Shown: positions 732 through 53,039 of the stretch, in pieces
How positions within the stretch are numbered: the stretch's first letter is position 1
Layout: every line of letters starts with the position of its first letter
NCBI GenBank assembly: GCA_965218945.1
Contig: OZ244718.1
Location: 1,981,700-2,045,699 of the forward strand
DNA: 64,000 nucleotides
From: Dehalococcoidia bacterium
GTDB taxonomy: Bacteria > Chloroflexota > Dehalococcoidia > Lucifugimonadales > UBA2985
Direction of reading: 5' to 3'
Translations under genes and position numbers: made by a program
Notes under the pieces: generated by a model
Told to the model about the DNA's origin: nothing
Database searches by the model: none
The model's input: only the letters and a program-made list of their open reading frames with translations

Positions 732-1271
732 TTAGTAGGCTGCCTCAGCCAAGGATTTTCTCAAGTTCAGGAGCTTTGTCCGGGCGCTGCCGTCTATCAG
801 CCTGTCCCCCACCCTGGCCAACAGGCCCGCCACAATGCTCGAGTCAACGGTGGCGGTCAACTCTATCTCCTTGCCCATCAACTCCTGAAGGTATCGCGCC
901 AGTCGCTCCTTCTGCTCGTCCTCCAGGGGCACGGCGCTTACCACGCTTGCCCTTTCCAGACCTCGATGCTGGTCCAAAAGGTTTCCGTACTCCTCCCTGA
1001 TGGATGGCAGGGTGTTAACCACGCCTCTAGCGACCAGCAGACCCAGGAGACTGTGAGCCAGAGGGTTCAGGTCGGGCAGAGCCTCTTGTATCACGCTCAT
1101 TTTCTGGGTGAGCCTGATTCTGGGCATCCCCAGGAACCCAGCGAACTCCCTCTCCTGGAGGGCCTCATCCAGTACCTGCAAGTCCGTCTGCCATCTCTCT
1201 ATCTCATCCCCTTCCAGGGCCAACTGGAAGATGGCAAGTGCGTACCGCTTTGACGAAGGTCTTCTGGGCAT
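732..1271 (-). CDS. atpH: ATP synthase delta (OSCP) subunit
   Basis: 179 aa; OSCP-like sequence (RYALAIFQLA..., C-terminal IVAGL..RVGD.LIDGS); lies between atpF and atpA. Confidence 0.85.
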   Translation of the reverse strand: MPRRPSSKRYALAIFQLALEGDEIERWQTDLQVLDEALQEREFAGFLGMPRIRLTQKMSVIQEALPDLNPLAHSLLGLLVARGVVNTLPSIREEYGNLLDQHRGLERASVVSAVPLEDEQKERLARYLQELMGKEIELTATVDSSIVAGLLARVGDRLIDGSARTKLLNLRKSLAEAAY

Positions 1272-1281
1272 GGCTCCTTCT

Positions 1282-1791
1282 CTATCTGCCGCCTATACTG
1301 GGGCTTTCCTCCAGCACCTTCTCAATAATGTCCCTGTGAGAACTCTCGTCCAGGGAGCGCTCGATCACCTGCTCGGCAGCCAGAATGGCCAACTCCGCGA
1401 AGTGACGGCGAACCCCATCAATGGCCTCGTCGCGCTCACGCTGTATATCAGCCCTGGCGCGGGCCACAAAGGCCTCGGCCTCCTGACGAGCTTTCTCACG
1501 CTCCTCTTCTCTGTACCTGTCGGCCATCTCCCGGGCTTGGGCGAGAAGGTTCTGTCCTTCCTGCCGGCCCTCATCCAGCCGCTTCTCCAACTCCTCCTGC
1601 TGCTGCGCCGCCTCCTGCCTTACGCGCTCCGCCGTCTCCACGCTCTCCCGTATCCGCTCGGACCGCTGGTCCAGCATCCCCAGGATGCGCTTGTAGCCTA
1701 CGAAGTACAGGATGGTCAGCAGTATGATGAAGTTTATTAGATAAGCAATCAGGCTGGGTATGTGGAATCCCAGTTTTGCCAGTTCCGCCAT
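1282..1791 (-). CDS. atpF: ATP synthase b subunit
   Basis: 169 aa; one N-terminal TM helix followed by a long E/R/A-rich coiled coil; operon position. Confidence 0.85.
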   Translation of the reverse strand: MAELAKLGFHIPSLIAYLINFIILLTILYFVGYKRILGMLDQRSERIRESVETAERVRQEAAQQQEELEKRLDEGRQEGQNLLAQAREMADRYREEEREKARQEAEAFVARARADIQRERDEAIDGVRRHFAELAILAAEQVIERSLDESSHRDIIEKVLEESPSIGGR

Positions 1792-3513: not shown

Positions 3514-4821
3514 TCACATACTTTTCGTCTGGTCAACGCCAACAACCCCCGGCAAAACGGGTTTCCTGGAAAATAGCACAAGGAAGCCGCCAAACAAGTT
3601 TACCGCCGCAAGGGTCAGCAGCGGCACGGTGTAGCTCCCCTGAAGATCGAAGAGATAGCCCGCAAACAGGGGCGCTATGACCGACACGCCGCTCAGGAAG
3701 AATGCGGAGAGGCCGAAGATGGTGGCGAAAGCCTTTCGCCCGAAGTAGTCTCCCCTGAGAGCGGTGAAGAGAGCGCCCCGCCCACCCCATCCAAATCCGA
3801 ACAGCACCGCAAAGGGCAGCGCCGTCGCAAAGCTGTTAATACCCACTGCAGCCACGACACCGATGGCCTGAATGGTGGCAAAGCCGAATATTATCACCGG
3901 CTTCGGGAACCGGTCCCCCAGGTAGCCTCCAACTATACGAGACCCCATGCCAACAAAGGTGTAAACGACCACCACGGTGCCGGCAAGCCCCAGGGACAGC
4001 CCGGCGTCGTGGAGCATGGGGATGGAGTGCACCTGGAGCGCGCCAACTATCATAGCGCTTAGGCCGTGGCTGAAGGTGATCAGCCAGAAGGCGGAGGTGT
4101 GCATCGCCTGGCGGGCAGTAAAATCACCATCTCCGTATGCGGCGACTCGGCCCTCCGACCCGTCCGCTCGAGACCTCGAGTCAGGGGCATCGCCGTCCGG
4201 CATCTGACCGTATTCCTCCGGCCGATTTCGTATCAGACGCGTGAGGGGAAAGGCCAGGATCAGGAAAATCACACCGAGACCGAATGCTATCGTTCGCCAT
4301 CCCAAAAGGCCGATTCCCACTGCCAGGACCGGCACCAGGATCCCCCCCATATAGTTGCCCATGCCGGCCGAGGCGATGGCTATGCTCCGCCGCCGCACAA
4401 ACCAGTTGTTCACCGCGGCTATCATCGGCAGGAAGCCTCCCAGTCCCATGCCAACGGCGATCACCATGAACGCCAGGTAGAAGCTGACAATGCCGCTGGT
4501 GAAGCTGAACATGAGGAATCCCAAACCCAGGATGGTAAACCCCACAAGCACCATCCTCCGGGAGCCAAACCGGTCAGTAAAGTATCCCTCCACGGGACCC
4601 ATCACGGTCCCCTCCAGGCGCGCCAGGGCAAATGCGCCGGACAGGACCGTCCTGCTCCACCCGAAGTGGCGCTCCAGCGCCACAAAGAAAACACCGAGCC
4701 CGTGGGCAGCCGCGCCGTTCGACAGGGCTATGGTGAACATGGCTACGCCAACAAGCCACCATCCGTAGAACAACCCGCGAGGCTTGTCCGCGGGTCCGGC
4801 AGCAGTGGGTGACCGTTCCAT
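3514..4821 (-). CDS. MFS transporter
   Basis: The ORF track gives 3514..4977. The hydrophobic core starts after MERSPTAAG (Met53, nt 4821). About 12 predicted TM segments; the upstream 52 codons are Cys/Arg-rich and look non-coding. Confidence 0.8.
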   Translation of the reverse strand: MERSPTAAGPADKPRGLFYGWWLVGVAMFTIALSNGAAAHGLGVFFVALERHFGWSRTVLSGAFALARLEGTVMGPVEGYFTDRFGSRRMVLVGFTILGLGFLMFSFTSGIVSFYLAFMVIAVGMGLGGFLPMIAAVNNWFVRRRSIAIASAGMGNYMGGILVPVLAVGIGLLGWRTIAFGLGVIFLILAFPLTRLIRNRPEEYGQMPDGDAPDSRSRADGSEGRVAAYGDGDFTARQAMHTSAFWLITFSHGLSAMIVGALQVHSIPMLHDAGLSLGLAGTVVVVYTFVGMGSRIVGGYLGDRFPKPVIIFGFATIQAIGVVAAVGINSFATALPFAVLFGFGWGGRGALFTALRGDYFGRKAFATIFGLSAFFLSGVSVIAPLFAGYLFDLQGSYTVPLLTLAAVNLFGGFLVLFSRKPVLPGVVGVDQTKSM

Positions 4822-5037
4822 AGGTGTCGCCTTCCTTAAATCCCGAGGGAGTGCCCACCAACGCGGGCCATACGCATTATGACACACAAAGGCATCGTTC
4901 CCAACAGGAATGCAGCGAAGGAATCTCGAAGATGAGGAGCGGTTTCGAGCAACATGGCCGCAAGCGCAAGGAAGCACATGAAAGCGCAGATAAGAGCTGG
5001 AAAGAGCTAGTCGTTCAAATTGCCGCTGTCGACCCGC

Positions 5038-6627
5038 TCAAATGGTTCGAGAGCCCTCTTTCTCAATTGACACGAAATCCTGAGTCGGGATGCCCAGGGT
5101 GATAGTGACGCTATTGTCACCATCTATGGTGATCTGGTCCACGATTAGCCTCAGGATGTCCCGACGCTCCTCGGAGGGCAGGTTATCCAATCGACCGCCA
5201 ATCCTGCGGGACCACTCGGCAATGTTCCCCGTCAGTACCTTCCTCTCCGTGGCCGCTGCCCCTTGAGCACGGTAGTCATAGAGCCTTGCCCGTGCGGCTT
5301 CCAGACGTTCCTGTATACGCTTGCGTTGATTGTCAAGCTGGTCCTCGGATATCTTGCCGGATACATACAGGCCAATTGCCCTGTCCTCTTCCGTCTGTAC
5401 CTTACGGAGCTCCCGCTCCGCATGGGCAATCCGCCTCTCAAGCCCACCATCCTCCCGCTCCTCCACGGACTCCATGCCCTTCACGATCAGGTCGGGATTC
5501 TGAACCACCGTTCTGACCTCTCTCCAGACCAGCTCCTCCAACCTGTCGGCTCGGATGTATGGCCGTTGCCGGCACCGCATGTGCTCCCTCTGCATTCCGT
5601 AGCAGTGGTAGTAGCGGTTAGGAGTCTTCAGGTCGTAGGTGTACCTCCTGTCCTTGTACTTCGCGGTTGCTCTGGTCTTGGACCGGCAGCCGAAGAGCAG
5701 ACCGCACTCGGAGCACCTTACGAGGTGCTGCAACAGGAAGAAGACCTTGGTGTTCCGCTTGGACAGGGAGGCCCGCTGCTTCTTGATGGCCTGCGCCCGA
5801 TCCCACGTCTGCTCGTCCACGAGGGGCGGGAAGGGTACCCCTATCCACGTGTCCTCCGGCTGCCTAGTGACCCGGTCCCTGCCCTCCGTGGCCACCCAGC
5901 GGGCCTTTCCGTACCACCAGATGCCTTTGTAGACCTCCTTGCCGAGGAGAGAATGCACGTAGGAGTTCTGCCACCGCGAGCCGAGCCTCCAGGTAGGGGC
6001 ATTGTCTCGGGCCAGCTGACTGGCAATCTCCAGCCCCACCATCCCTTCGTGTACGTACTGGCGGAAGATGCGCCTCACGATCTCGGCTTCCGGCTCGTAT
6101 ACCACCGGCTTGCCGTCCTCCCCGATCCGGTATCCATAGGGGACCGAGCCATTCGGCATGCGTCCCTGCTTGGCCTTCCCGCGCCTGCCCATGGTTGTTC
6201 TCTCCCGGATGTTGTCCAGTTCTATCTTCCCGATGGCCGCCATGATCCCGAACATCTTCATGTCGACGGGGTCCATGACCGACTCTAGGCGAATCTGGTG
6301 CGCCTCGACGACCTCCATCATGGCGGCTGCCGGGTACATCCCGCGGCTCAGCCTGTCCATCTTCCAGCACACGATGACGTCGAACCGGCCGTCCCGCGCA
6401 TCGGCCAGCATGCGCTGGAACTCCGGGCGGTTCTTGGACCAGCCCCTGCCCACCTCCTGGTAGCGCGCGGTGATGGTCAGTCCCCTCCGCTCGCAGTAGG
6501 CCTCCATCTCGGCGGTCTGCTCGGAGATGGAGACCTTATCCTCCGTGTCCTGGCTCTTGTCCGACACGCGGGAGTATATGGCCGCCCGTTTCGTTCCCGT
6601 CTCCCTATCGGTGGTTCTCATCGCCAT
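5038..6627 (-). CDS. Large serine recombinase (resolvase/invertase N-domain + recombinase domain + zinc ribbon + coiled coil)
   Basis: 529 aa. N-terminal AAIYSRVSDKSQ catalytic-Ser motif, DVIVCWKMDRLSR, Cys cluster CSECG...YYHCYG, C-terminal coiled coil. GGAGG RBS upstream of the ATG. Confidence 0.9.
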   Translation of the reverse strand: MAMRTTDRETGTKRAAIYSRVSDKSQDTEDKVSISEQTAEMEAYCERRGLTITARYQEVGRGWSKNRPEFQRMLADARDGRFDVIVCWKMDRLSRGMYPAAAMMEVVEAHQIRLESVMDPVDMKMFGIMAAIGKIELDNIRERTTMGRRGKAKQGRMPNGSVPYGYRIGEDGKPVVYEPEAEIVRRIFRQYVHEGMVGLEIASQLARDNAPTWRLGSRWQNSYVHSLLGKEVYKGIWWYGKARWVATEGRDRVTRQPEDTWIGVPFPPLVDEQTWDRAQAIKKQRASLSKRNTKVFFLLQHLVRCSECGLLFGCRSKTRATAKYKDRRYTYDLKTPNRYYHCYGMQREHMRCRQRPYIRADRLEELVWREVRTVVQNPDLIVKGMESVEEREDGGLERRIAHAERELRKVQTEEDRAIGLYVSGKISEDQLDNQRKRIQERLEAARARLYDYRAQGAAATERKVLTGNIAEWSRRIGGRLDNLPSEERRDILRLIVDQITIDGDNSVTITLGIPTQDFVSIEKEGSRTI

Positions 6628-6660
6628 GATTCCCTCCTCTCGGATTCCCTGAAATGAAGA

Positions 6661-6688
6661 AGACCCGCCTCCTGTCGGGAGCGGGTCT
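6661..6688 (-). terminator. Strong hairpin between the mini-CHAT gene and the recombinase gene (terminator/attenuator candidate)
   Basis: AGACCCGC...GCGGGTCT perfect 8-bp stem plus 3 inner pairs. On the minus strand it is followed by TCTTCATTTC. It sits 34 nt upstream of the recombinase start. Confidence 0.4.
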
Positions 6689-6874
6689 GCGAGTAGTACA
6701 ATCTATTCGCATCACCTGTCCAACCAGGTGGCGCCACGGCCCGGGATGTTTGCAGCATCGCCGGGCCAACTTTCTGACCCCATGATACCGCGATCTGGGG
6801 GGCAGGGTCAAAGCGCGGCGGCTCTCGGTAGTGTACTCGTTTGACCAAAAGCACCTTCTCACCACAGGTCTCAC

Positions 6875-7447
6875 TCAGCCTATCTCATGAGTTCGTGTTC
6901 GAGAGCAGTAGGTTATCGGCAGCTCGAACAACCGCGCCAATTTTTTGACGGTTGGCAGGATGTCGTCACGCTTCATACGCCTCGTGTCGGTGTCGAACAT
7001 CAGGTAGTAAAACGAGGCCCAAAAGATCGCGGCTTGATCGAAATCAACATCCTTGCTAGGACCTATCGTTGATAGGCATCCCGAGCCAGTCATCACGGCT
7101 TGTCGAAATTGGTCGTTCACCACACTACAAGCCGAGATGAACAGCCGTTTATCTTGTAAGTATGGCCTAAGAAGGTCGCCTAGCTCTTGGAACGAGATCG
7201 TGTCGAATGTGGTTCCGATGGCTCGACTATTCCCGTGGCAGGATAAATGCAAGTAACGATATCCGCTTTCTTGAAAGTCCTCCAAGAAGTGTATTAGTTC
7301 CCGCTTCGTTCGAATGTAAACGTATCGCGGGGACTTACCAGACAGCTTGAGAATCTCCGTAAGCGCCTCTCCCTCTCGTTCACCCTTGGCCTCGTTTTCC
7401 AAGTCAACCGACTCAATTATGTAGATATCCGGTGTGTCAAGGGCCAT
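6875..7447 (-). CDS. Standalone mini-CHAT / caspase-like protein (paralog 1)
   Basis: 190 aa. His-Cys dyad context YRYLHLSCHG ...36 aa... LFISACS, then GCLSTIGP..V.D..AAIFWASFYY, which matches CHAT-domain topology. AGGAGG RBS. Visibly AT-richer than neighbours. A paralog lies at 51505..52161. Confidence 0.6.
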   Translation of the reverse strand: MALDTPDIYIIESVDLENEAKGEREGEALTEILKLSGKSPRYVYIRTKRELIHFLEDFQESGYRYLHLSCHGNSRAIGTTFDTISFQELGDLLRPYLQDKRLFISACSVVNDQFRQAVMTGSGCLSTIGPSKDVDFDQAAIFWASFYYLMFDTDTRRMKRDDILPTVKKLARLFELPITYCSRTRTHEIG

Positions 7448-7665
7448 AGTAACCTCCTATACTTTCTCGATTTCCTCAAGAATCCACTCCCACCCGTAGG
7501 CGTACTCCGCCACACCCAAACTGAGACACTACCCTCGATTGCTATTCATAGTAGGACGCACTGACGTAGAAGTCTACGGCGGTCCGACGCTCGCGAGGTC
7601 GCCACTATGAATGTGGGGCGTCAAGACGCGTTCCCGTTCTGCCAGCGTTCCCCACAGTGTCCCGC

Positions 7666-8904
7666 TCAATCCTCCGGTTCGTCACCTGACGACGCGGCGG
7701 TCGTCGTCGGAGCCCCCGCCGCTGATGAACCGTACGTCTCCATCGCCTGCCTCGTCCGGTCGAGCTCTGACGCCAGGAGCGCCTCGTCCGGCAGGGTGAT
7801 CCGGTACTCCCCGGCCATCACGTTGTTCGGCAGGCCATCGAGGGCATACTGCGCCAGGGCCTCGTCCTTCTCGGAGCAGAGGATGAGTCCGACAGGCGGG
7901 TTCTCGCCCTCGCGCACCCAGTGCTCCCGCGCGTAGTTCAGGTAGAGGTGCATCTGCCCGGCGTCGGCGTGGGTGAACGCCCCGATCTTCAGGTCGATGA
8001 CCACGAGGCATCGCAAGCCCCGGTGATAGAACAGCAGGTCAACCCTGTACCACCTGTTGCCGATGCGCAGACGCCTCTGCCTGCCCATGAAGCAGAAGTC
8101 GCCTCCGAGCTCCATGAGAAAGGTCTCCAGGTGGCGAATGAGCGCGTCTTCGAGGTCGCTCTCGGAGTACTCGTCCCTGAGGTCGAGGAACTCCAGGACG
8201 AAGGGGTCCTTGATCTCCTTCTCGGGCAGCACAATGTCTTCGGCCCTGGGCTTCTGCCCCCGCGCCAGCATGGCGGCCTTGTTCTTGGACAGGGCGGTGC
8301 GCTCGTAGAACTGTGAGCCGATCTGCCGGTCGAGCTGGCGGACCGACCATCCGCCCCGCAGCGCCTCGGTCTCGTAGAACTCGCGGGCGCTCTCGTTCCT
8401 CACCGATAGCAGCCGGACGTAGGCCGACCAGGGCAACGGAAAGGCCGCCGGAAGGTCGTGGAAGCCCACTTCGACGGAGGAAGCTTCGGATATGCCAGAC
8501 GCCGTCTGGCGAATCGGCATTTGAGAGGGTCGATTCAATTTGCCAGACACTGTCTGGCGAATCCGGTCGGGCGGATGCGAAAGGTAGAACAGTCGCATGT
8601 TCTGGAGGTTCTGACGGGAGAAGCCCCGTCCGAATTGCCCGGTCAGGTCCTCCGCCAGGCTCTCGATCAACGCGGCTCCGTACTCGGCCCGCTCCTCACC
8701 CGACTGCTCGAACTCGACGATGCGCCGCCCAACGAGCCAGTACGCGGCGGTCATGGCGGCGTTCACCGAGCGGGCGGCCGTCTCCCTGGCCGCGTCGATG
8801 ATCTTCGACACGTCTCCGAAGACGGCCCGATATGGGGCGTCGTGGCTGAGAGCCGAATCCCTCGGCGCAGGCTTCTGACGGTCGGGGGACGACTCGGACC
8901 GCAT
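7666..8904 (-). CDS. YhcG/DUF1016-family PD-(D/E)XK nuclease
   Basis: 412 aa; the C-terminal RVDLLFYHRGLRCLVVIDLKIGAFTHADAGQMHLYLNY block is typical of DUF1016 nucleases. Confidence 0.8.
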   Translation of the reverse strand: MRSESSPDRQKPAPRDSALSHDAPYRAVFGDVSKIIDAARETAARSVNAAMTAAYWLVGRRIVEFEQSGEERAEYGAALIESLAEDLTGQFGRGFSRQNLQNMRLFYLSHPPDRIRQTVSGKLNRPSQMPIRQTASGISEASSVEVGFHDLPAAFPLPWSAYVRLLSVRNESAREFYETEALRGGWSVRQLDRQIGSQFYERTALSKNKAAMLARGQKPRAEDIVLPEKEIKDPFVLEFLDLRDEYSESDLEDALIRHLETFLMELGGDFCFMGRQRRLRIGNRWYRVDLLFYHRGLRCLVVIDLKIGAFTHADAGQMHLYLNYAREHWVREGENPPVGLILCSEKDEALAQYALDGLPNNVMAGEYRITLPDEALLASELDRTRQAMETYGSSAAGAPTTTAASSGDEPED

Positions 8905-9131
8905 CAGATTTCAGCCTCCAGGTGGTTATCCACATGCCGGTCGTCCGGGGGCGGGTCCTTCTCGGACGGAGCGTGCCCGTCACTGTCAGGGGGCTTGAGC
9001 AGGATAGTGAAGAGGCGGCGTAGCCTGTCTTCGGCGTCGGGGGCGGGCCTGGAGATGACCCTGACCACGCCGAACTCGGAGAGGTCCTCTTCGGGCGTCG
9101 GTTGCCCGTTCTGTCTGCTCTTGTCGTTCAT
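8904..9131 (-). CDS. Hypothetical 75-aa protein translationally coupled to the YhcG-like gene
   Basis: Its TGA overlaps the YhcG ATG (ATGA at 8902..8906). Acidic/Pro-rich; no family recognised. Confidence 0.4.
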   Translation of the reverse strand: MNDKSRQNGQPTPEEDLSEFGVVRVISRPAPDAEDRLRRLFTILLKPPDSDGHAPSEKDPPPDDRHVDNHLEAEI

Positions 9132-9234
9132 CGCTCTCTTCGCCGGGCTCGCGTGAGCCCGCGTCGGGCTGTCACCGTCCGTATGATTGCAATCGAGTGT
9201 GGGGAGCCGTGAGGCGGGACACCATGCCGCACTT

Positions 9235-9260
9235 GGGAGGACGCGCGAGTCCTCCCTTTT
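9235..9260 (+). terminator. Terminator-like hairpin in a non-coding stretch
   Basis: GGGAGGAC-GCGCGA-GTCCTCCC perfect 8-bp GC-rich stem followed by TTTT on the plus strand. No plus-strand gene lies upstream. Confidence 0.3.
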
Positions 9261-9517
9261 GGGGCCATGGGCGGAGATGGACGGGATGTACTGTCATACC
9301 CGTGTACAGGGATTTGCGCCGACGCCCAAGAGGGCGGTCTGGGGCAGGTTTGAACGTGAAATGGCCGCAAAAGAGGGAGGTGGGAGCCGGGTTTGCGAAC
9401 GCTCTGGTGAAGGGGCTGGTTCCGGTCACTGAAAGGGAGACCGCCCAGAGGGAGGCCGGCATTGCTGCTACATCGGAGCAAGCAATTGGACGAGGAGGCC
9501 GGAATCCCGGGTATTCT

Positions 9518-10274
9518 CTATACGGGTTGGTGTGATATCCAAGCCTGTTGTAGACATACCAAGGCTACCGAATCCCGTAGGACCTCTTCACTCTTGCTGT
9601 ATCCCTTTGTCCTACGTATCAATCTATTCAGCTTACTCCTCAATACTGAGTGCTTTCCCTCATTCCGATTCGCCTCACGACCCTTGCCAACCACGTGCCG
9701 GTTGGCTGGCAGCCACTCATACACCCTGTACCCGTCGCTGACATGCCTGGCAGCATCCGGCAGTCGGTTGTAAAGCCTGAGGAATGTATCCTCGCTCCGG
9801 TCTCCCACTTCAAAGTCCATCCATCTGCTGCCGTCCTCCTCCTCTATCACCGCCGTCCATATCCAACGCTCCCGCCTAATCTCCCGTCGTCTCGCTCCCA
9901 CGTAAGTCCACATCTCGTCCCAGGATATGACTCTGGCCCTCGGCTGCTCCGGCCTCCGAATTGCTCTCTGCTGACGCAGCATAGCTGCCAACTCCATTGC
10001 CTGCCTGGCTTTTTTTGACCCAGGAATACACGGTTCCCAGCTTGATGTCTAGCACCCTGGCTATGGCAGATATGCTGCTACCTTCACCATACATGCTCAG
10101 AGCCCGCCTCTTGATCTCCTCTGAGTAGTAGTGACGATTCCCATCAGGTGTGGACCGATATTTACAATCACCACAACGATATGTCTGTTTACCACGGGAG
10201 CGTCCATATTTGGGCAGCCAGTTGGAGCCACAGTGGGGACAGCGCAGGTCGTGGCGATAAACACGTTGCGCCAT
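9518..10274 (-). CDS. IS1-family transposase, split into InsA-like (9876..10274) and InsB-like (9518..9997) ORFs
   Basis: InsA part: zinc-finger CPHCGS...CGDCKY plus HTH (SISAIARVLDIKLGTVYSWVKK). InsB part: WDEMWTYVG...W..V... DDE region. The InsB frame is +1 relative to InsA. Confidence 0.85.
10010..10016 (-). promoter_or_regulatory. A7 homopolymer at the InsA/InsB frame junction (slippage/recoding or indel site)
   Basis: The minus strand reads GTC AAA AAA AGC. Removing one A fuses InsA to the InsB frame (..VKKARQAMELAAML..). Confidence 0.5.
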
Positions 10275-10515
10275 TAGCTTACCACCCGCATTTATACTAG
10301 AATTGACTCATTCTATTTCATACCAACACCTGTAGAGAATACCGAGGAGAGAACAGCCTTGACACCTGGTATCCCTCACCTCCAGAATTCAAACATCCAT
10401 CAAGTCGATGCACTCTCGCCTTGCCATTGACGGGGCATCGGGAGCACGGCGTCTCGCCAGCACGGAATTGTTATGCCTCTAGGCAGGAACCCGCCGTGAA
10501 ATGAGGAGGAATCTT

Positions 10516-12534
10516 ATGACTTTAGCCCCCGAATCTTCGGAACAGCGCCCCTACTGGTTCGTAGGCGCATCCTACGGCGGCACTGATGACCGAACCGCCG
10601 AGTTCCTCAAGCAAGGAATCTGGCGTAATGGCTGGCAAAATAGACACTTGGATCACGTAAGGTCGATGCAGCCAGGTGACCGCATTGCAATCAAATACAG
10701 CACTACTCGAAAGCACAACCTCCCATTCGATGCCGGTGGAAGAAGCGTTTCAGTGATGGGGATAAAAGCGGTCGGAACGGTCATGAGTAACTTGGGAGAC
10801 GGACGTACTGTTGGAGTCGACTGGATTCCAGTAGATCCACCTCGTGAATGGTATTTTTACACTCACCGGGGAACAGTATGGCGAGTCATCCCCGGGTCGG
10901 GAACACTTCCCTGGGCAGCCGAAGGACTGATTGGCTTTGCTTTTGAGGGCAGGCCTCAGGATTATGACCGATTCCTAGCGCATTGGTATAGTGGTGAGGC
11001 ATCCCCTCCCCCATCCACTCCTTGGGACGAATTTATCGAACTGGCGAGACAATACGTTAACAGCGGACGTCTGGATGAAGAAGAAATCAGCTACAAGCTC
11101 AACGTAGGTGAGTTGGTGGCAAACGCGCGACATGCAGTCCTGGCCGGCGCCGATGATTGGATTGATCGGCTAAAGGCTGCAATATTCGGCACACACAACC
11201 TAACTACACACTATCAAGCCTATTGGTTCGAGCGATGGGTTGATGCGAGCCCTGACAACGCCATGAGGGCGCTGAATATTCTGTGGGTGGACGATGACCA
11301 ATCGGTAGTAGACCGAATTCGTGCCTTCAGCAGGCTACTCTCCGATTATGAGCTGAGGGGCACTGGCACCCGTATGAACGTGATTTCTATCTTGCTTTTG
11401 GGGCTGGACGCAGAGCGGTACCCGCCCTTCAGGACTAGATGGCTGAGCAAGACCTACAGCCGTCTTGATTATGCACATCCCGAAGCAGACGCTGACGAAG
11501 CCGCGGTCTATGAGCACTCCCTTGGATTCTTTGACCGCTTCATCGAGGAATCTGCAAGGCGCGGTCTCACCTTGCGACATAGATTAGATGCTCAATCCGT
11601 TGCTTGGGCCATTCACCAGAATCGCCAAGAAACGTCATCAGAAGTGCTGCCGCGTACATTGGCCTCACTTTCCGACGACTTGCTACTTCCGGTAGATTTC
11701 CTCGAAGAAATCAAGGAACTGCTCGACGAAAAGAAACAGATCGTCTTTCAAGGCCCTCCAGGTACCGGCAAGACCTTCGTAGCACTAGCATTGGCGAATT
11801 TCCTTGCCGGCTCGAAGGAGCGTGTTACGCTCGTGCAGTTCCATGCTTCCTACGCCTACGAGGACTTTATACAAGGATACCGGCCTGTTTTAGGAGACAA
11901 CCAGCAGCCCGGGTTCGCGCTCACCGACGGACCTCTCATTCGAGCAGCGGAGGCGGCACGAGATGAGCCACAGGAGAAGCATTACCTCGTCATCGACGAA
12001 ATAAACCGCGGCAATCTCGCAAAGGTATTTGGAGAGTTGTTCTTCCTGCTGGAGTACCGCAACCGAGATATTCGCTTGCAGTACCAGGGTGACGAGGATG
12101 AGGACTTCTCCCTACCCGAAAACCTCTACATTATCGGGACGATGAATACGGCTGACCGATCGATCGCGCTGGTGGATCTCGCACTGCGCAGGCGGTTCTA
12201 TTTTGTAGAGTTCGCTGCTGATGATGGCCCTATCAAGGGGCTATTGCGCCGCTGGCTCGACGCGAATGAACTTGGCCACATGGAATGGGTGGCCGACGTC
12301 ATCGACCTGGCAAATCAGAAATTGAGCGACCAGAACGCCGCAATTGGGCCGAGCTACTTCATGAAGAAGGGGAAGGAAGGCAATCCCGACCTGAACGAAG
12401 ATGAAGTCAAGCGCATATGGAAGCACAGTATCCTCCCCTATATCGAGGAGCGCCGCTTCGGAGACCGCGATGTTCGCGAGGAGTTTGACCTTGAAAAGCT
12501 GCGCCGCGAGGCAACCCGCAGCGGCGATCAGTAG
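10516..12534 (+). CDS. mcrB: McrB-family AAA+ GTPase with a non-canonical PUA/EVE-like N-terminal domain
   Basis: Walker A GPPGTGKT, Walker B YLVIDEINRGN, McrB-specific IIGTMNTADRS and RRRF. ATG at 10516 follows AGGAGG (the ORF track starts at 10501). The N-terminal 130 aa (PYWFVGASYGG...MQPGDRIAIKY...GIKAVGTVMS) resembles PUA/EVE/ASCH topology; this is inference. Confidence 0.88.
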   Translation: MTLAPESSEQRPYWFVGASYGGTDDRTAEFLKQGIWRNGWQNRHLDHVRSMQPGDRIAIKYSTTRKHNLPFDAGGRSVSVMGIKAVGTVMSNLGDGRTVGVDWIPVDPPREWYFYTHRGTVWRVIPGSGTLPWAAEGLIGFAFEGRPQDYDRFLAHWYSGEASPPPSTPWDEFIELARQYVNSGRLDEEEISYKLNVGELVANARHAVLAGADDWIDRLKAAIFGTHNLTTHYQAYWFERWVDASPDNAMRALNILWVDDDQSVVDRIRAFSRLLSDYELRGTGTRMNVISILLLGLDAERYPPFRTRWLSKTYSRLDYAHPEADADEAAVYEHSLGFFDRFIEESARRGLTLRHRLDAQSVAWAIHQNRQETSSEVLPRTLASLSDDLLLPVDFLEEIKELLDEKKQIVFQGPPGTGKTFVALALANFLAGSKERVTLVQFHASYAYEDFIQGYRPVLGDNQQPGFALTDGPLIRAAEAARDEPQEKHYLVIDEINRGNLAKVFGELFFLLEYRNRDIRLQYQGDEDEDFSLPENLYIIGTMNTADRSIALVDLALRRRFYFVEFAADDGPIKGLLRRWLDANELGHMEWVADVIDLANQKLSDQNAAIGPSYFMKKGKEGNPDLNEDEVKRIWKHSILPYIEERRFGDRDVREEFDLEKLRREATRSGDQ

Positions 12535-49939: not shown

Positions 49940-51472
49940 TTGATAATCAAAAACCTCCTTATAATTGCAGCAACCACCCTGGCGCTCTTTGCAGCGCTGG
50001 CCTGCAGCGCAGATCCCACACCTGTACCTCCCATACCACCAACGGCCACCAGCACAAACCCTCCTCCGACGGCCCCAAGCGCTCCGGTATCCCGCTCGGA
50101 TGTTGAGACGACATTCAGTGAGCCTCTCTCCTCCGGCCTCTCCATAGCCGACGTGACGGAGAACGCCCTGCCCAGTGTGGCTCACATAGTCACGGGGACC
50201 GGCTCAGGGACCGGGTTCATAGTCAACGAGAGCGGGCTTGTGGTCACCAACAAGCACGTCGTGGATGGGAGCACGGAAGTCAGGGTTATTATGGCGTCTG
50301 GAAACGACTACCGGGGCAGCGTGACACAGCGGCATCCCACCCTGGACCTAGCCTATATCAGCATAGACTCCAGCCAGACCTTCACCCCAATAGCGGTCGG
50401 AGACTCCGATGAGGTCCGCGTTGGAGCGGAGGTCATAGCCATAGGGTTTCCACTGGGGTCGACGCTGGGGTCAGAGCCGACGGTCAGCGTGGGCATAATC
50501 TCGGCAAAGCGGGACGCCCGCCTGCAGACCGACGCGTCACTTAATCCCGGGAACAGCGGCGGGCCGCTGCTGAACATATTCGGGCAGGTGATTGGCGTGG
50601 TGGTCTCACGGGTGGAAGAGGACAGCTCGGGGAGACCCATCTCAGGAATTGGGTTTGCGATACCCATCAACGAAGTGAAGACGGAGCTTGGAGGGCAGGT
50701 ATCCCCAGCCGGGCCGGTTCTGCCGACGCCAACGCCATTCCCAACCATTGGGCCGACCCCAGACTTGGAGGCCACCAAGAGCGCGATAGAGGCTATAGAC
50801 GCCTTCCGGCGGGCTTCAGACCAGGCCACGCAGGCGGCCGTTGAGGCCCGGGCCACAGCCGAGCAGTACGCCGCCGACCTGGAGGCCACCCGCATAGCCG
50901 ATCTGCCCACCCCAACACCTACGGCCACTCCCACCGCCACGCCCCTTCCCACGGCCACCCCGACGGCTACCCCGACTCCTACGCCGGAACCGACACCGAC
51001 GCCCACTGCTACACCTACCCCACATCCGGCAACTTTCTGCACGGAATGGGAGGCCTTGGTGCTGGAGTGGGTCAAGCAGGGGAACAACTATCGTCGCTAC
51101 GGCACTGTCATTGGGTTTCATCCCGATGTACCCGACCACCCCCGGATATCCGCCGAGCAAGGGGACCGTCTCTGCCTCACTTCATTTCCGAGAGGTATCT
51201 CTCCTTCATTCCTCAGCTACAATGTCATCAAGATTGGCTATGGAGAAGGGAATCTCCTGCCTGGCCTGTACGAGTACCGTCGGCCGGGCGATAATCGCGT
51301 AGACGGCAAAGGTTGTAGCATCACGCTCAACTATGAGGAAAGAAACGAAAGTGAGGTTCCACTGCCCTACGGCGAACTGTTCACCTTCCGGTTCTTTACA
51401 TATCACGAAAGGGTTAAGTTTAATTGGTCCTCACCCAATTGCCATGGTGCCCTCTACCGCATAGGGGACTAG
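49940..51472 (+). CDS. Trypsin-like (S1/HtrA-type) serine protease lipoprotein with PT linker and unknown C-terminal domain
   Basis: Lipobox FAALAC; catalytic triad context TNKHVV / LDLAYI / GNSGGPL; no PDZ; PTPTPTATPTATP... linker; C-terminal domain of about 130 aa unknown. Confidence 0.85.
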   Translation: MIIKNLLIIAATTLALFAALACSADPTPVPPIPPTATSTNPPPTAPSAPVSRSDVETTFSEPLSSGLSIADVTENALPSVAHIVTGTGSGTGFIVNESGLVVTNKHVVDGSTEVRVIMASGNDYRGSVTQRHPTLDLAYISIDSSQTFTPIAVGDSDEVRVGAEVIAIGFPLGSTLGSEPTVSVGIISAKRDARLQTDASLNPGNSGGPLLNIFGQVIGVVVSRVEEDSSGRPISGIGFAIPINEVKTELGGQVSPAGPVLPTPTPFPTIGPTPDLEATKSAIEAIDAFRRASDQATQAAVEARATAEQYAADLEATRIADLPTPTPTATPTATPLPTATPTATPTPTPEPTPTPTATPTPHPATFCTEWEALVLEWVKQGNNYRRYGTVIGFHPDVPDHPRISAEQGDRLCLTSFPRGISPSFLSYNVIKIGYGEGNLLPGLYEYRRPGDNRVDGKGCSITLNYEERNESEVPLPYGELFTFRFFTYHERVKFNWSSPNCHGALYRIGD

Positions 51473-51504: not shown

Positions 51505-52161
51505 ATGGCAATTCAGACTGATGTATTCATGATAGAATCAATGCTCCTCGATGATGAGTTAGAAAATGACATTGAGGGCAAGTTGCTGACCGAAATGTTG
51601 CGATTAGGCGGCAAGAACCCTCTTTATTTCTATGTGAGAACGAAACGGGAACTGAAAGAGATACTACGGCTGTTTGAGAAGAGTGAGTATCGCTATCTAC
51701 ATTTGTCGTGTCACGGTGATCCCAGAGCAATAGATACAACGTTAGACAGCATCACGTTTGAGGAATTGGGTGGGATCCTCAAACCCTACCTTTGCAGGAA
51801 GCGTCTGTTCATGTCATCGTGCGCAACGGTCAACGGCCGACTTGCAAGAGCGGTGATGAAAGGCTCAGGGTGTCTGTCCGTTAGCGGGCCGATTAAGGAT
51901 GTTGATGTCGATGTAGCAGCGATATTCTGGGCTTCTTTCTACCATCTGCTATTCCGCAAAGATGAGAAGCCTACAAGGGACCAAGACATCAGAGACATTC
52001 TTGGACGTGTGACAAAGCTATTCGGAGTATCGACTCGCTATTACGGGATTGATTCTAGTACAAGCAAAGGCTATCGCTTTAAGACCTTCCGTGTATGCGA
52101 AAACGAGAACATGGATGATTCTATGACTTCGCAGTCATCCACGGAGAAGGGATCATCATAG
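51505..52161 (+). CDS. Standalone mini-CHAT / caspase-like protein (paralog 2)
   Basis: Start at MAIQTDVF after GGAAGGAG. Aligns along the whole length with 6875..7447 (roughly half of residues identical by eye), including YRYLHLSCHG, RLFMSSCAT and AAIFWASFYH. It has an extra Ser/Thr-rich tail. Confidence 0.6.
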   Translation: MAIQTDVFMIESMLLDDELENDIEGKLLTEMLRLGGKNPLYFYVRTKRELKEILRLFEKSEYRYLHLSCHGDPRAIDTTLDSITFEELGGILKPYLCRKRLFMSSCATVNGRLARAVMKGSGCLSVSGPIKDVDVDVAAIFWASFYHLLFRKDEKPTRDQDIRDILGRVTKLFGVSTRYYGIDSSTSKGYRFKTFRVCENENMDDSMTSQSSTEKGSS

Positions 52162-52613: not shown

Positions 52614-53039
52614 CTACTTCAGCAGCCCCCGCACGGGGATGAGTTTCTGGCCGTAGGGATCGACGCCGAGGAGGACGCCTTCGAGCGTGTACGCGCCCAG
52701 CAAGGCGGTTGTCCCTTCCTCGCCGAATATGACCCAGGTGGTGGTCTCTCGTCCCGCCACCCTGGCCTTCGCCTCGGCCATGTCCAGTTCAACCTGCTGT
52801 CCACTGGCGTATTCGAATGTCTCGCGCCTGGTGGGGACGATGCCGAGGCTTCCGAGGATGGAGCCTGGGATCACGGTGGTGGTTGCGCCGGTGTCAACCA
52901 GAGCCTCCAGGTTCTCGTATCTCTCTCCCCGCAGGTCTCCAATCTCTATCTGTACGGCAAAGGTTCCCACTTCAACCTTCTCTATCAAGAGAGTCACGTT
53001 GGAGCACAGTCCCCTCACTGGAGACCTTTGCGTAACCAT
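52614..53039 (-). CDS. Retropepsin-like (clan AA) aspartic protease
   Basis: 141 aa; ALVDTGATTTVI active-site motif and a C-terminal LLG...L dimerisation-like strand. Confidence 0.75.
   Translation of the reverse strand: MVTQRSPVRGLCSNVTLLIEKVEVGTFAVQIEIGDLRGERYENLEALVDTGATTTVIPGSILGSLGIVPTRRETFEYASGQQVELDMAEAKARVAGRETTTWVIFGEEGTTALLGAYTLEGVLLGVDPYGQKLIPVRGLLK

Follow-up and report, generated by a model that had tools for sequence, protein, structure and literature searches.

To our knowledge, the bacterial caspase-like proteases that have been characterised (Csx29, SAVED-CHAT, PCaspase and the type IV Thoeris effector) all owe their activation to a sensor, be it fused or dedicated. CHAT and caspase-like proteases of bacteria serve as abortive-infection effectors, protease cascades included, and SAVED-CHAT forms filaments (10.1101/2023.06.23.546230), while type IV Thoeris has a caspase-like effector that is, as summarised in 10.64898/2025.12.03.692087, a broad-specificity abortive-infection executioner. 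In the "nuclease-protease pairs" of PMC12799240, metallo-β-lactamase (MBL) nucleases go together with trypsin-like or caspase proteases. Herein we describe a family not involved in those pairs, the mini-CHATs, which is represented by two genes (copy A and copy B) in a 64,000-nt stretch of the genome of a Dehalococcoidia bacterium (GCA_965218945.1, contig OZ244718.1, positions 1,981,700 to 2,045,699; hereafter the window). Nothing specific was found in the literature on a standalone CHAT protein or on a link between Argonautes and CHAT.

Based on alignments and a structural model, the mini-CHATs would form a large, horizontally mobile and previously uncharacterised family of single-domain, CHAT-like cysteine peptidases of ~200 residues. 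Their genes habitually lie in the company of anti-phage and mobile-element genes, none of which is a constant partner. The reading that we favour, and to which we give about an even chance, is that they are latent CHAT-like cysteine proteases acting as conflict (anti-phage or anti-mobile-element) effectors.

Fold, candidate active site and closest relatives

An earlier note, made from the letters of the window and the translations of its open reading frames (ORFs), had recognised a mini-CHAT ORF of about 190 aa and a paralog that shares its catalytic motif blocks, and both points hold. Copies A and B are 53% identical across 180 residues (E 2e-69). In copy A the blocks YRYLHLSCHG, LFISACS and IGPSKDVDFDQAAIFWASFYY follow one another in this order, Cys107 standing 36 residues after His71, and they are kept both in copy B and family-wide. 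A comparison of eight close copies of A, taken from other assemblies, gave dN/dS values of 0.07-0.40, and copy A is therefore a real protein-coding gene under purifying selection.

An AlphaFold2 model with an alignment of 42 relatives as input (pLDDT 92.6, pTM 0.90) predicts six strands with connecting helices in the topology of the caspase-hemoglobinase fold, with His71-Gly72 directly after strand 3 and Cys107 directly after strand 4. The CHAT/caspase similarity that the earlier note had put up for checking is found in this model: its best Foldseek match in the PDB was SAVED-CHAT (8tl0, E 3.5e-7, TMq 0.68), followed by Csx29/TPR-CHAT, caspase-3 and -7, CED-3, caspase-4 and -11, legumain, C11 protease and MALT1, with flavodoxin-like folds first appearing in the ranking at ~1e-3. 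The structural search of BFVD also yielded caspase and clostripain matches. When PDB chains were searched by single protein sequence and by family profile, there were no matches.

Across the 42 relatives, E12, E19, Y42, Y44, T47, H67, S69, H71, R101, F103, S105, C107, S126 and Y147 are invariant. Counted over the 259 family members that reach 170 aa or more, the His and Cys singled out in the earlier note are each kept in 258 (H71 and C107), R101, S105 and S126 each in 257, and H67 in 254, while E12 is kept in 250 of the 251 non-gap sequences. This pattern bears on the possibility that mini-CHATs are not proteases in vivo, being instead caspase-fold decoys, adaptors or immunity proteins that act by binding (e.g., in polymorphic-toxin immunity or as decoy substrates). 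Such a role would suit the Cellvibrio gene, which belongs to a series of small ORFs in one orientation, one of them with a Tdi1_C immunity-type domain, as well as the SUKH-1 protein that adjoins the mini-CHAT in Marinobacter, and it would account for a potentially toxic protease having no visible regulator. Conservation of this kind is, however, rare in binding proteins, and the conserved motifs coincide with CHAT catalytic motifs; we consider a purely binding role very improbable.

The correspondence with CHAT was examined using hhalign, with 26 true CHAT domains (relatives of the TPR-CHAT that adjoins a mini-CHAT in locus L021) as reference alignment. The match (P = 4e-4) pairs RTKRE of the mini-CHATs with TREE, LHLSCHG with LHLAVHG and LFISAC with LTTLSAC, placing H67 and H71-G72 on CHAT H163 and H167-G168, and C107 on C214; the candidate dyad and the first His therefore fall on invariant residues of CHAT. 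The predicted fold, the candidate dyad and the near-absolute conservation of both are among the parts of this account that we take as established, from the model and the alignments. At the end of strand 1, the S1-pocket position holds Arg in caspases and Asp in metacaspases. The invariant Glu12, likewise at the end of strand 1, would stand at this position, which by analogy suggests cleavage after Arg or Lys (P1).

With CHAT (PF12770, MEROPS clan CD) the mini-CHATs have in common the predicted fold (best structures 8tl0, 8eey and 8d9f), the motifs T-R-x-E, L-H-L-x-x-H-G and L-S-A-C in equal order, and a prokaryotic conflict-system context, the TPR-CHAT of L021 even being a divergent neighbour. 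They differ in extent. The CHAT domain model has 289 positions, of which only ~107-253 were matched, whereas a whole mini-CHAT has ~190-230 aa; the N-terminal third of CHAT is replaced by one strand-helix unit, and the TPR, SAVED or other sensor domain of CHAT proteases is found in no mini-CHAT save rare members such as P0231, which has weak C-terminal TPR matches. Since the Pfam threshold was failed (the highest CHAT score among the family members scanned was 22.1 bits) and the N-terminal third is absent, we do not file the family under PF12770; sequence and model instead point to a trimmed sister of CHAT, closest to DUF6642.

DUF6642 (PF20347, ~180 positions) is likewise standalone and of similar size. 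Compared with the family profile, an NCBI-annotated DUF6642 protein from a Brevibacterium plasmid gave an hhalign probability of 96.6% (E 6.6e-10); weak DUF6642 matches occur in 10 of 42 family members (best E 1.2e-4), and the relative P0047 carries a precomputed DUF6642 annotation. Copies A and B had no match to the DUF6642 model in the Pfam scan, and the DUF6642 alignment spans residues 45-153 only, with the N-terminal strand bearing Glu12 outside it. Judged by these alignments, DUF6642 is best treated as a sister family of the mini-CHATs and is probably also a minimal CHAT-like peptidase family; no mention of it was found in the literature, hence no functional clue.

Caspases, metacaspases and PCaspase (Peptidase C14), together with the type IV Thoeris effector, share the fold and dyad topology of the predicted model. 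Identity as a C14 caspase was ruled out by the absence of a PF00656 match (none at E <= 1 for copies A and B, nor among the 22 families listed for 42 members) and of a cleavable p20/p10 linker. The earlier note had named CHAT and Peptidase_C14 as the families to compare, and of these CHAT was upheld by hhalign but stayed sub-threshold in Pfam, while C14 was not matched. An upstream signal that is defined, either SAVED-CHAT cleavage or N7-cADPR, also switches on the C14-type and Thoeris effectors, whereas none is evident for the mini-CHATs.

The family is large: among 1.84 billion cluster representatives, its profile retrieved 1,163 clusters (defined at 50% identity) at E <= 1e-3 and 251 at E <= 1e-30. 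A standalone protein reduced to the catalytic core, as the earlier note had described it, is the usual form, with 247 of the 274 sampled family proteins having 170-250 aa and three exceeding 300 aa; the long members P0260 and P0266 have a helical N-terminal extension without annotation. The earlier note called such a minimal core without fused sensor unusual, but the core is not rare, with more than 1,100 clusters and a sister branch in DUF6642. Members were found in Chloroflexota, Acidobacteriota, Bacillota, Pseudomonadota, Bacteroidota, Cyanobacteria and Gemmatimonadota and in one metagenome-assembled genome (MAG) of Bathyarchaeota. The hosts in this genome scan include Dehalococcoidia, Anaerolineales, Desulfosporosinus, many Proteobacteria, Flavobacterium, Synechococcus and Gemmatimonadales, and the distribution across phyla is patchy.

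The mobile cassette and recombinase module around copy A

Gene A is mobile, lying as the sole gene in a 705-bp inverted-repeat cassette that is nested in a serine-recombinase module (Table 1), which takes the mobility proposed in the earlier note beyond what could be seen there. The cassette ends, GGTAGTGT-CTCAGTTTG and GGTAGTGTACTC-GTTTG, are imperfect inverted repeats in which 16 of 18 aligned positions match, with two 1-nt indels; the pair can be summarised as GGTAGTGT...ACACTACC and occurs at no fewer than four unrelated sites. With exact boundaries and 89-93% nucleotide identity, the cassette is present in L012, L013 and L049, in unrelated contexts that have neither the recombinase nor the YhcG gene found beside copy A, and in L049 it sits between GmrSD genes. 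The L013 copy has the 9-bp direct repeat CCTGTTGTA on both sides, and chance does not account for it. The window site shows CGAG only and L012 and L049 have no flanking duplication, and a transposition signature at every site is thus not supported, the duplication being clear at one of four independent sites.

Mobile insertion cassettes and elements resembling miniature inverted-repeat transposable elements (MITE-like elements) are short and have imperfect terminal inverted repeats, no internal transposase, one passenger gene and several unrelated sites, all of which applies to the 705-bp unit. It departs from them in the clear duplication at one site of four, in being a single copy in the window and in that a cognate transposase was not found. 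Its sequence leads us to regard the unit as a mobile cassette of MITE-like kind that carries a passenger gene. An integron-cassette reading was rejected by eye, the ends not fitting the GTTRRRY core. An IS1-like element lies nearby, and its ends start with GGTATTCTCT, compared with GGTAGTGTCT for the cassette, so that 8 of the first 10 end nucleotides are common to both; IS1-family elements typically give 8-9-bp duplications.

Table 1 Features of the window and of other loci with mini-CHAT genes or relatives.
Feature	Source	Position	Strand	Remarks
Mini-CHAT copy A (ORF A)	window	6875..7447	minus	190 aa, ATG start, ribosome-binding site (RBS) AGGAGG; predicted single-domain caspase-hemoglobinase-fold protein
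Mini-CHAT copy B (ORF B)	window	51505..52161	plus	218 aa counted from ATG, RBS GGAAGGAG
Cassette	window	6827..7533	minus	705 bp; 85-bp 5' leader incl. RBS, 48-bp 3' tail
Terminal inverted repeat, gene 5' end	window	7516..7533	minus	GGTAGTGTCTCAGTTTGG
Terminal inverted repeat, gene 3' end	window	6827..6846	plus (as read)	GGTAGTGTACTCGTTTGACC
Cassette copy	L012	5917..6622
Cassette copy	L013	5914..6621
Cassette copy	L049	4908..5623
Module	window	5022..9514	minus	4.5 kb or more; small ORFs together with YhcG, the mini-CHAT cassette and the recombinase
Large serine recombinase	window	5038..6627	minus	529 aa
YhcG/DUF1016 PD-(D/E)XK nuclease-family protein	window	7666..8904	minus	412 aa; upstream of A, co-oriented
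Hairpin	window	6661..6688	minus	GC-rich, then UCUUCAUUUC (weak U-tract); outside cassette, ~30 nt upstream of recombinase start codon
Promoter-like TTGACC-18-TATCAT	window	6811..6782
Stretch past recombinase stop	window	5022..5045		GCGGGTCGACAGCGGC
Stretch past recombinase stop	L009	12426..12450		GCGTGAAGACTGCGGC
IS1-like element	window	9510..10343		34-nt imperfect inverted ends; assigned by eye; exactly at L009 homology break
InsA-like zinc-finger/helix-turn-helix (HTH) ORF of IS1-like element	window	9876..10274	minus	overlaps InsB-like ORF
InsB-like ORF of IS1-like element	window	9518..9997	minus	overlaps InsA-like ORF
AAA_5 (dynein-related, McrB-like) protein	window	10501..12534	plus	677 aa
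Trypsin-like S1 protease	window	49940..51472	plus	510 aa; ends 32 bp upstream of copy B
Retropepsin-like aspartyl protease (gag-asp_proteas/Asp_protease_2)	window	52614..53039	minus	141 aa; 450 bp downstream of B, convergent
Short-Argonaute/mini-CHAT locus	L023	2826..6610
Short-Argonaute/mini-CHAT locus	L024	1939..6603
Short-Argonaute/mini-CHAT loci	L025/L026/L117; L073; L109
Argonaute-like gene beside divergent mini-CHAT	L074	2316..5882	minus
Argonaute-like gene beside divergent mini-CHAT	L067	1119..1451	minus
DUF4145 locus	L040	6667..7320
DUF4145 locus	L041	1525..2154
DUF4145 loci	L042; L038; L063			
Distant homolog	L046 (Salmonella 4-kb plasmid)	803..1387
Distant homolog	L133 (E. coli chromosome)	9001..9585
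DUF6642 protein	L132 (Brevibacterium plasmid)	3638..4366		same His-Gly and S-A-C motifs; Abi-family gene nearby
Neighbours STAND-TIR, SUKH (SUKH-1), HNH	Marinobacter
Neighbours nSTAND5 and nSTAND3 NTPases	L022, L035
Neighbour TPR-CHAT	L021
Neighbour DACNG/DACNH sensor protein	L015
Neighbour HEPN AbiU2	L019
Neighbours Abi_C, DUF4365	Desulfosporosinus
Neighbours TIR_2, HNH, ResIII	Bathyarchaeota
Neighbour DUF4145/PD-T7-4-like	Vicinamibacteria, Synechococcus			directly downstream
Neighbour CAP12-type TIR	L030
Neighbour Schlafen AlbA_2	L039
Neighbours Vsr, Dcm, HATPase_c_3	IMG/VR contig
Neighbours SIR2 and AAA	Vibrio plasmid
Neighbour GmrSD	L049
Neighbour CRISPR I-E	L010

The large serine recombinase that the earlier note had placed downstream of copy A is there and co-oriented, at a distance of 247 bp, and has the Pfam domains PF00239 Resolvase (4.6e-29), PF07508 Recombinase (2.9e-15) and PF13408 Zn_ribbon_recom (2.2e-9). 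The AT-richer DNA noted at this place is confined to gene A and its cassette (50% GC), and does not extend to the recombinase (61%) or YhcG (65%). With 97.5% identity, the module recurs as part of a contig from another Dehalococcoidia MAG (L009), between different flanks; in the window its end at ~9514 coincides with the IS1-like insertion, and the 4.5 kb are thus a lower bound. The strong hairpin reported between the two genes was also recovered: a 71-nt stretch folds at -27.8 kcal/mol (z = -3.7), and none of 200 shuffles was as stable. The hairpin is a weak terminator or else a regulatory element. When the entire window was scanned for Rfam families and tRNAs, nothing turned up, so that the hairpin belongs to no known RNA family and the element does not lie at a tRNA.

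Two further observations concern the borders of the module. A 16-nt stretch past the recombinase stop is similar in the otherwise unrelated flanks of the window and L009, and may be the remnant of a recombinase attachment site. Just past the IS1-like element, the AAA_5 protein may belong to a restriction system of McrBC type, and the window would then have a defence/mobile-element island at this end.

YhcG, mini-CHAT and recombinase occur as a trio in six Dehalococcoidia loci (the window, L009, L010, L014, L048 and L050), and in L010 the trio adjoins CRISPR-Cas I-E. The trio is one of several arrangements that would suit mini-CHATs being dedicated accessories of an adjacent system, with copy A tied to YhcG and the recombinase, copy B forming a two-protease cascade with a trypsin-like protease, and the acidobacterial members serving as third subunit or effector of short Argonautes. 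The three cassettes that have neither YhcG nor recombinase speak against such a tie for copy A, and we regard the accessory explanation as a whole as unlikely, the evidence from the other arrangements being given below.

Mobile replicons carry few of the family members. There were none in 50,697 phage genomes, one in IMG/VR and members on 5 of 72,556 plasmids. Among the very few viral members is BFVD entry A0A8S5MXG5 (Myoviridae sp. ctWaE18, metagenomic), a 320-aa protein that shares 40% identity with copy A in 189 aligned columns (TMq 0.95) and holds an extra region of ~130 residues. Distant homologs (hhalign probability 99.2%) occur in Salmonella, on a plasmid of 4 kb, and in E. coli (WP_001556320.1), where 6 of 5,426 genomes have the gene and its site is an integrase-bordered island with dinD and yicC on either side; a divergent HTH regulator is paired with the homolog on both the plasmid and the island.

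Such locations are relevant to the alternative that the mini-CHAT is a counter-defence or element-benefit protease, which would cleave host-defence or competing-element proteins or act as an addiction factor. Copy A is cassette cargo within a serine-recombinase module, homologs ride on the Salmonella and other plasmids and on the E. coli island, and the Myoviridae genome and the IMG/VR contig hold one member each, all as this alternative would have it. It is at odds with the absence from the phage genomes and the small plasmid count, as well as with the many chromosomal copies beside, and co-oriented with, host defence operons; since defence genes commonly ride mobile elements, mobility itself does not discriminate. 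On balance we hold a role in the service of the element to be distinctly unlikely.

Gene neighbourhoods of the family

The neighbours of the mini-CHATs were surveyed by ORF clustering over 131 loci from genomes, metagenomes, plasmids and one viral contig. Nameable neighbours are mostly conflict-system or mobile-element genes (Table 1), with integrases and transposases recurrent, and the survey of homolog sizes and neighbours that the earlier note had suggested thus yields proteins of mostly 170-250 aa in mostly defence or mobile-element surroundings. The 131 loci contain no partner common to different lineages, which argues against a dedicated accessory. So does the orientation of the neighbours: at 5 of 37 loci the two genes that flank the mini-CHAT both lie on the other strand, leaving it with no co-oriented neighbour, and we count these loci in favour of a function without an operon partner.

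The most striking local associations are those with short Argonautes in Acidobacteria. A SPARSA operon (SIR2-APAZ and short pAgo) in L024-L026, and likewise a SPARTA operon (TIR-APAZ and short pAgo) in L023, ends 11-21 bp before the mini-CHAT start; in L023 the TIR-APAZ protein matches 8qlo_A at 1e-63 and the pAgo matches 8fex_B at 7e-162. Between the two kinds of loci, identity is as low as 25% for the Argonautes but 76-81% for the mini-CHATs, and nucleotide homology starts exactly at the mini-CHAT start codon and runs on downstream. Either this is a hotspot at which the upstream system has been swapped, or the mini-CHAT serves both kinds of short Argonaute. The second option would suit the accessory explanation, whereas the common downstream flank is what a single chromosomal hotspot may leave. 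Argonaute-like genes also adjoin two divergent mini-CHATs (L074 and L067; identity to those of Acidobacteria ~40-46%), oriented divergently or convergently, and these, too, can be listed on the side of an accessory.

At copy B, the candidate partner is the trypsin-like protease encoded directly upstream. The pair recurs with different flanks in L001 and, more loosely, in L031, where an RCC1-repeat gene lies between, which is the arrangement that a two-protease cascade would call for. A hydrophobic signal/anchor segment forms the N-terminus of the trypsin-like protein, which also contains a linker rich in Pro and Thr, while the mini-CHAT is devoid of a signal peptide, and the genes differ by 14 points in GC content (46% for copy B, 60% for the trypsin-like gene). 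Because the signal/anchor is on the protease only and the GC gap is this wide, we do not treat the pair as a demonstrated cascade; as a general mechanism the cascade was rejected, the pair being restricted to Dehalococcoidia and the trypsin-like protein looking extracytoplasmic. With the retropepsin-like gene downstream, three protease classes are encoded within 3 kb around copy B.

In one subfamily, a ~210-aa DUF4145 (PD-T7-4-like) protein is encoded immediately 3' of the mini-CHAT in one Vicinamibacteria and one Synechococcus MAG, the two DUF4145 proteins being 46% identical. The protein recurs close to the mini-CHAT at three further loci, and DUF4145 and mini-CHAT may there form a two-gene module.

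Candidate function and implications

The favoured reading, in which mini-CHATs are conflict effectors, draws on an intact and constrained active site, the lack of a fused sensor, the defence-type neighbours and the near-absence from phages. Several results weigh on the other side. The association with defence islands is a tally of neighbours, taken without a background of other accessory genes. Copies A and B matched none of the defence models in PADLOC-DB v2 (0 families at E <= 1) and nothing in NCBIfam; their Pfam CHAT scores are 11.7 and 15.8 bits, respectively, against a gathering cut-off of 24, and the hhalign probability to CHAT is just 35% despite the P value given above. Neither a trigger nor a sensor can be named for the mini-CHAT, and a constitutively folded protease without a regulator would be expected to be toxic. 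Taken together, copies A and B are credible candidates for single-gene immune proteases.

Two modes of action can be envisaged for a conflict effector of this kind: the mini-CHAT could be a self-contained, single-gene abortive-infection protease, or an executioner usable in trans by differing neighbouring sensors. Since only 18 residues, a helix included, separate Cys107 from strand 5 in the model, caspase-style cleavage of a linker is unlikely as the switch; activation would more likely occur by dimerisation or oligomerisation (cf. the SAVED-CHAT filaments) or by binding of a trigger protein. An analogy to the first mode is the Lit protease of the E. coli element e14, a single-gene, element-borne and latent abortive-infection effector for which a phage product is the direct trigger. 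As a zinc metalloprotease Lit has an unrelated fold, and its likeness to the mini-CHATs is one of system logic, not of ancestry.

A bolder version, which we offer as a long shot, is that mini-CHATs are the smallest functional caspase-type module. Lacking a sensor, such a single-gene immune effector would spread by means of its own MITE-like cassette. It might either sense infection directly (through trigger-induced oligomerisation or recognition of a phage-protein substrate) or be a portable executioner that might be recruited in trans by SPARTA/SPARSA Argonautes, STAND NTPases and TIR proteins.

Should a sensor-less core of ~200 residues be active, it would raise the question of how a bare caspase fold stays silent and is then triggered, and it would define the minimal unit from which the larger CHAT and caspase proteins were built. 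The apparent exact swap of SPARTA and SPARSA at the 5' edge of the mini-CHAT, together with the 705-bp cassette, bears on how defence genes are shuffled. The distant homologs in E. coli and Salmonella make the family directly testable and are a convenient experimental handle. With its large size, its lack of annotation and its place among defence genes, the family makes a concrete candidate where new defence genes are sought.

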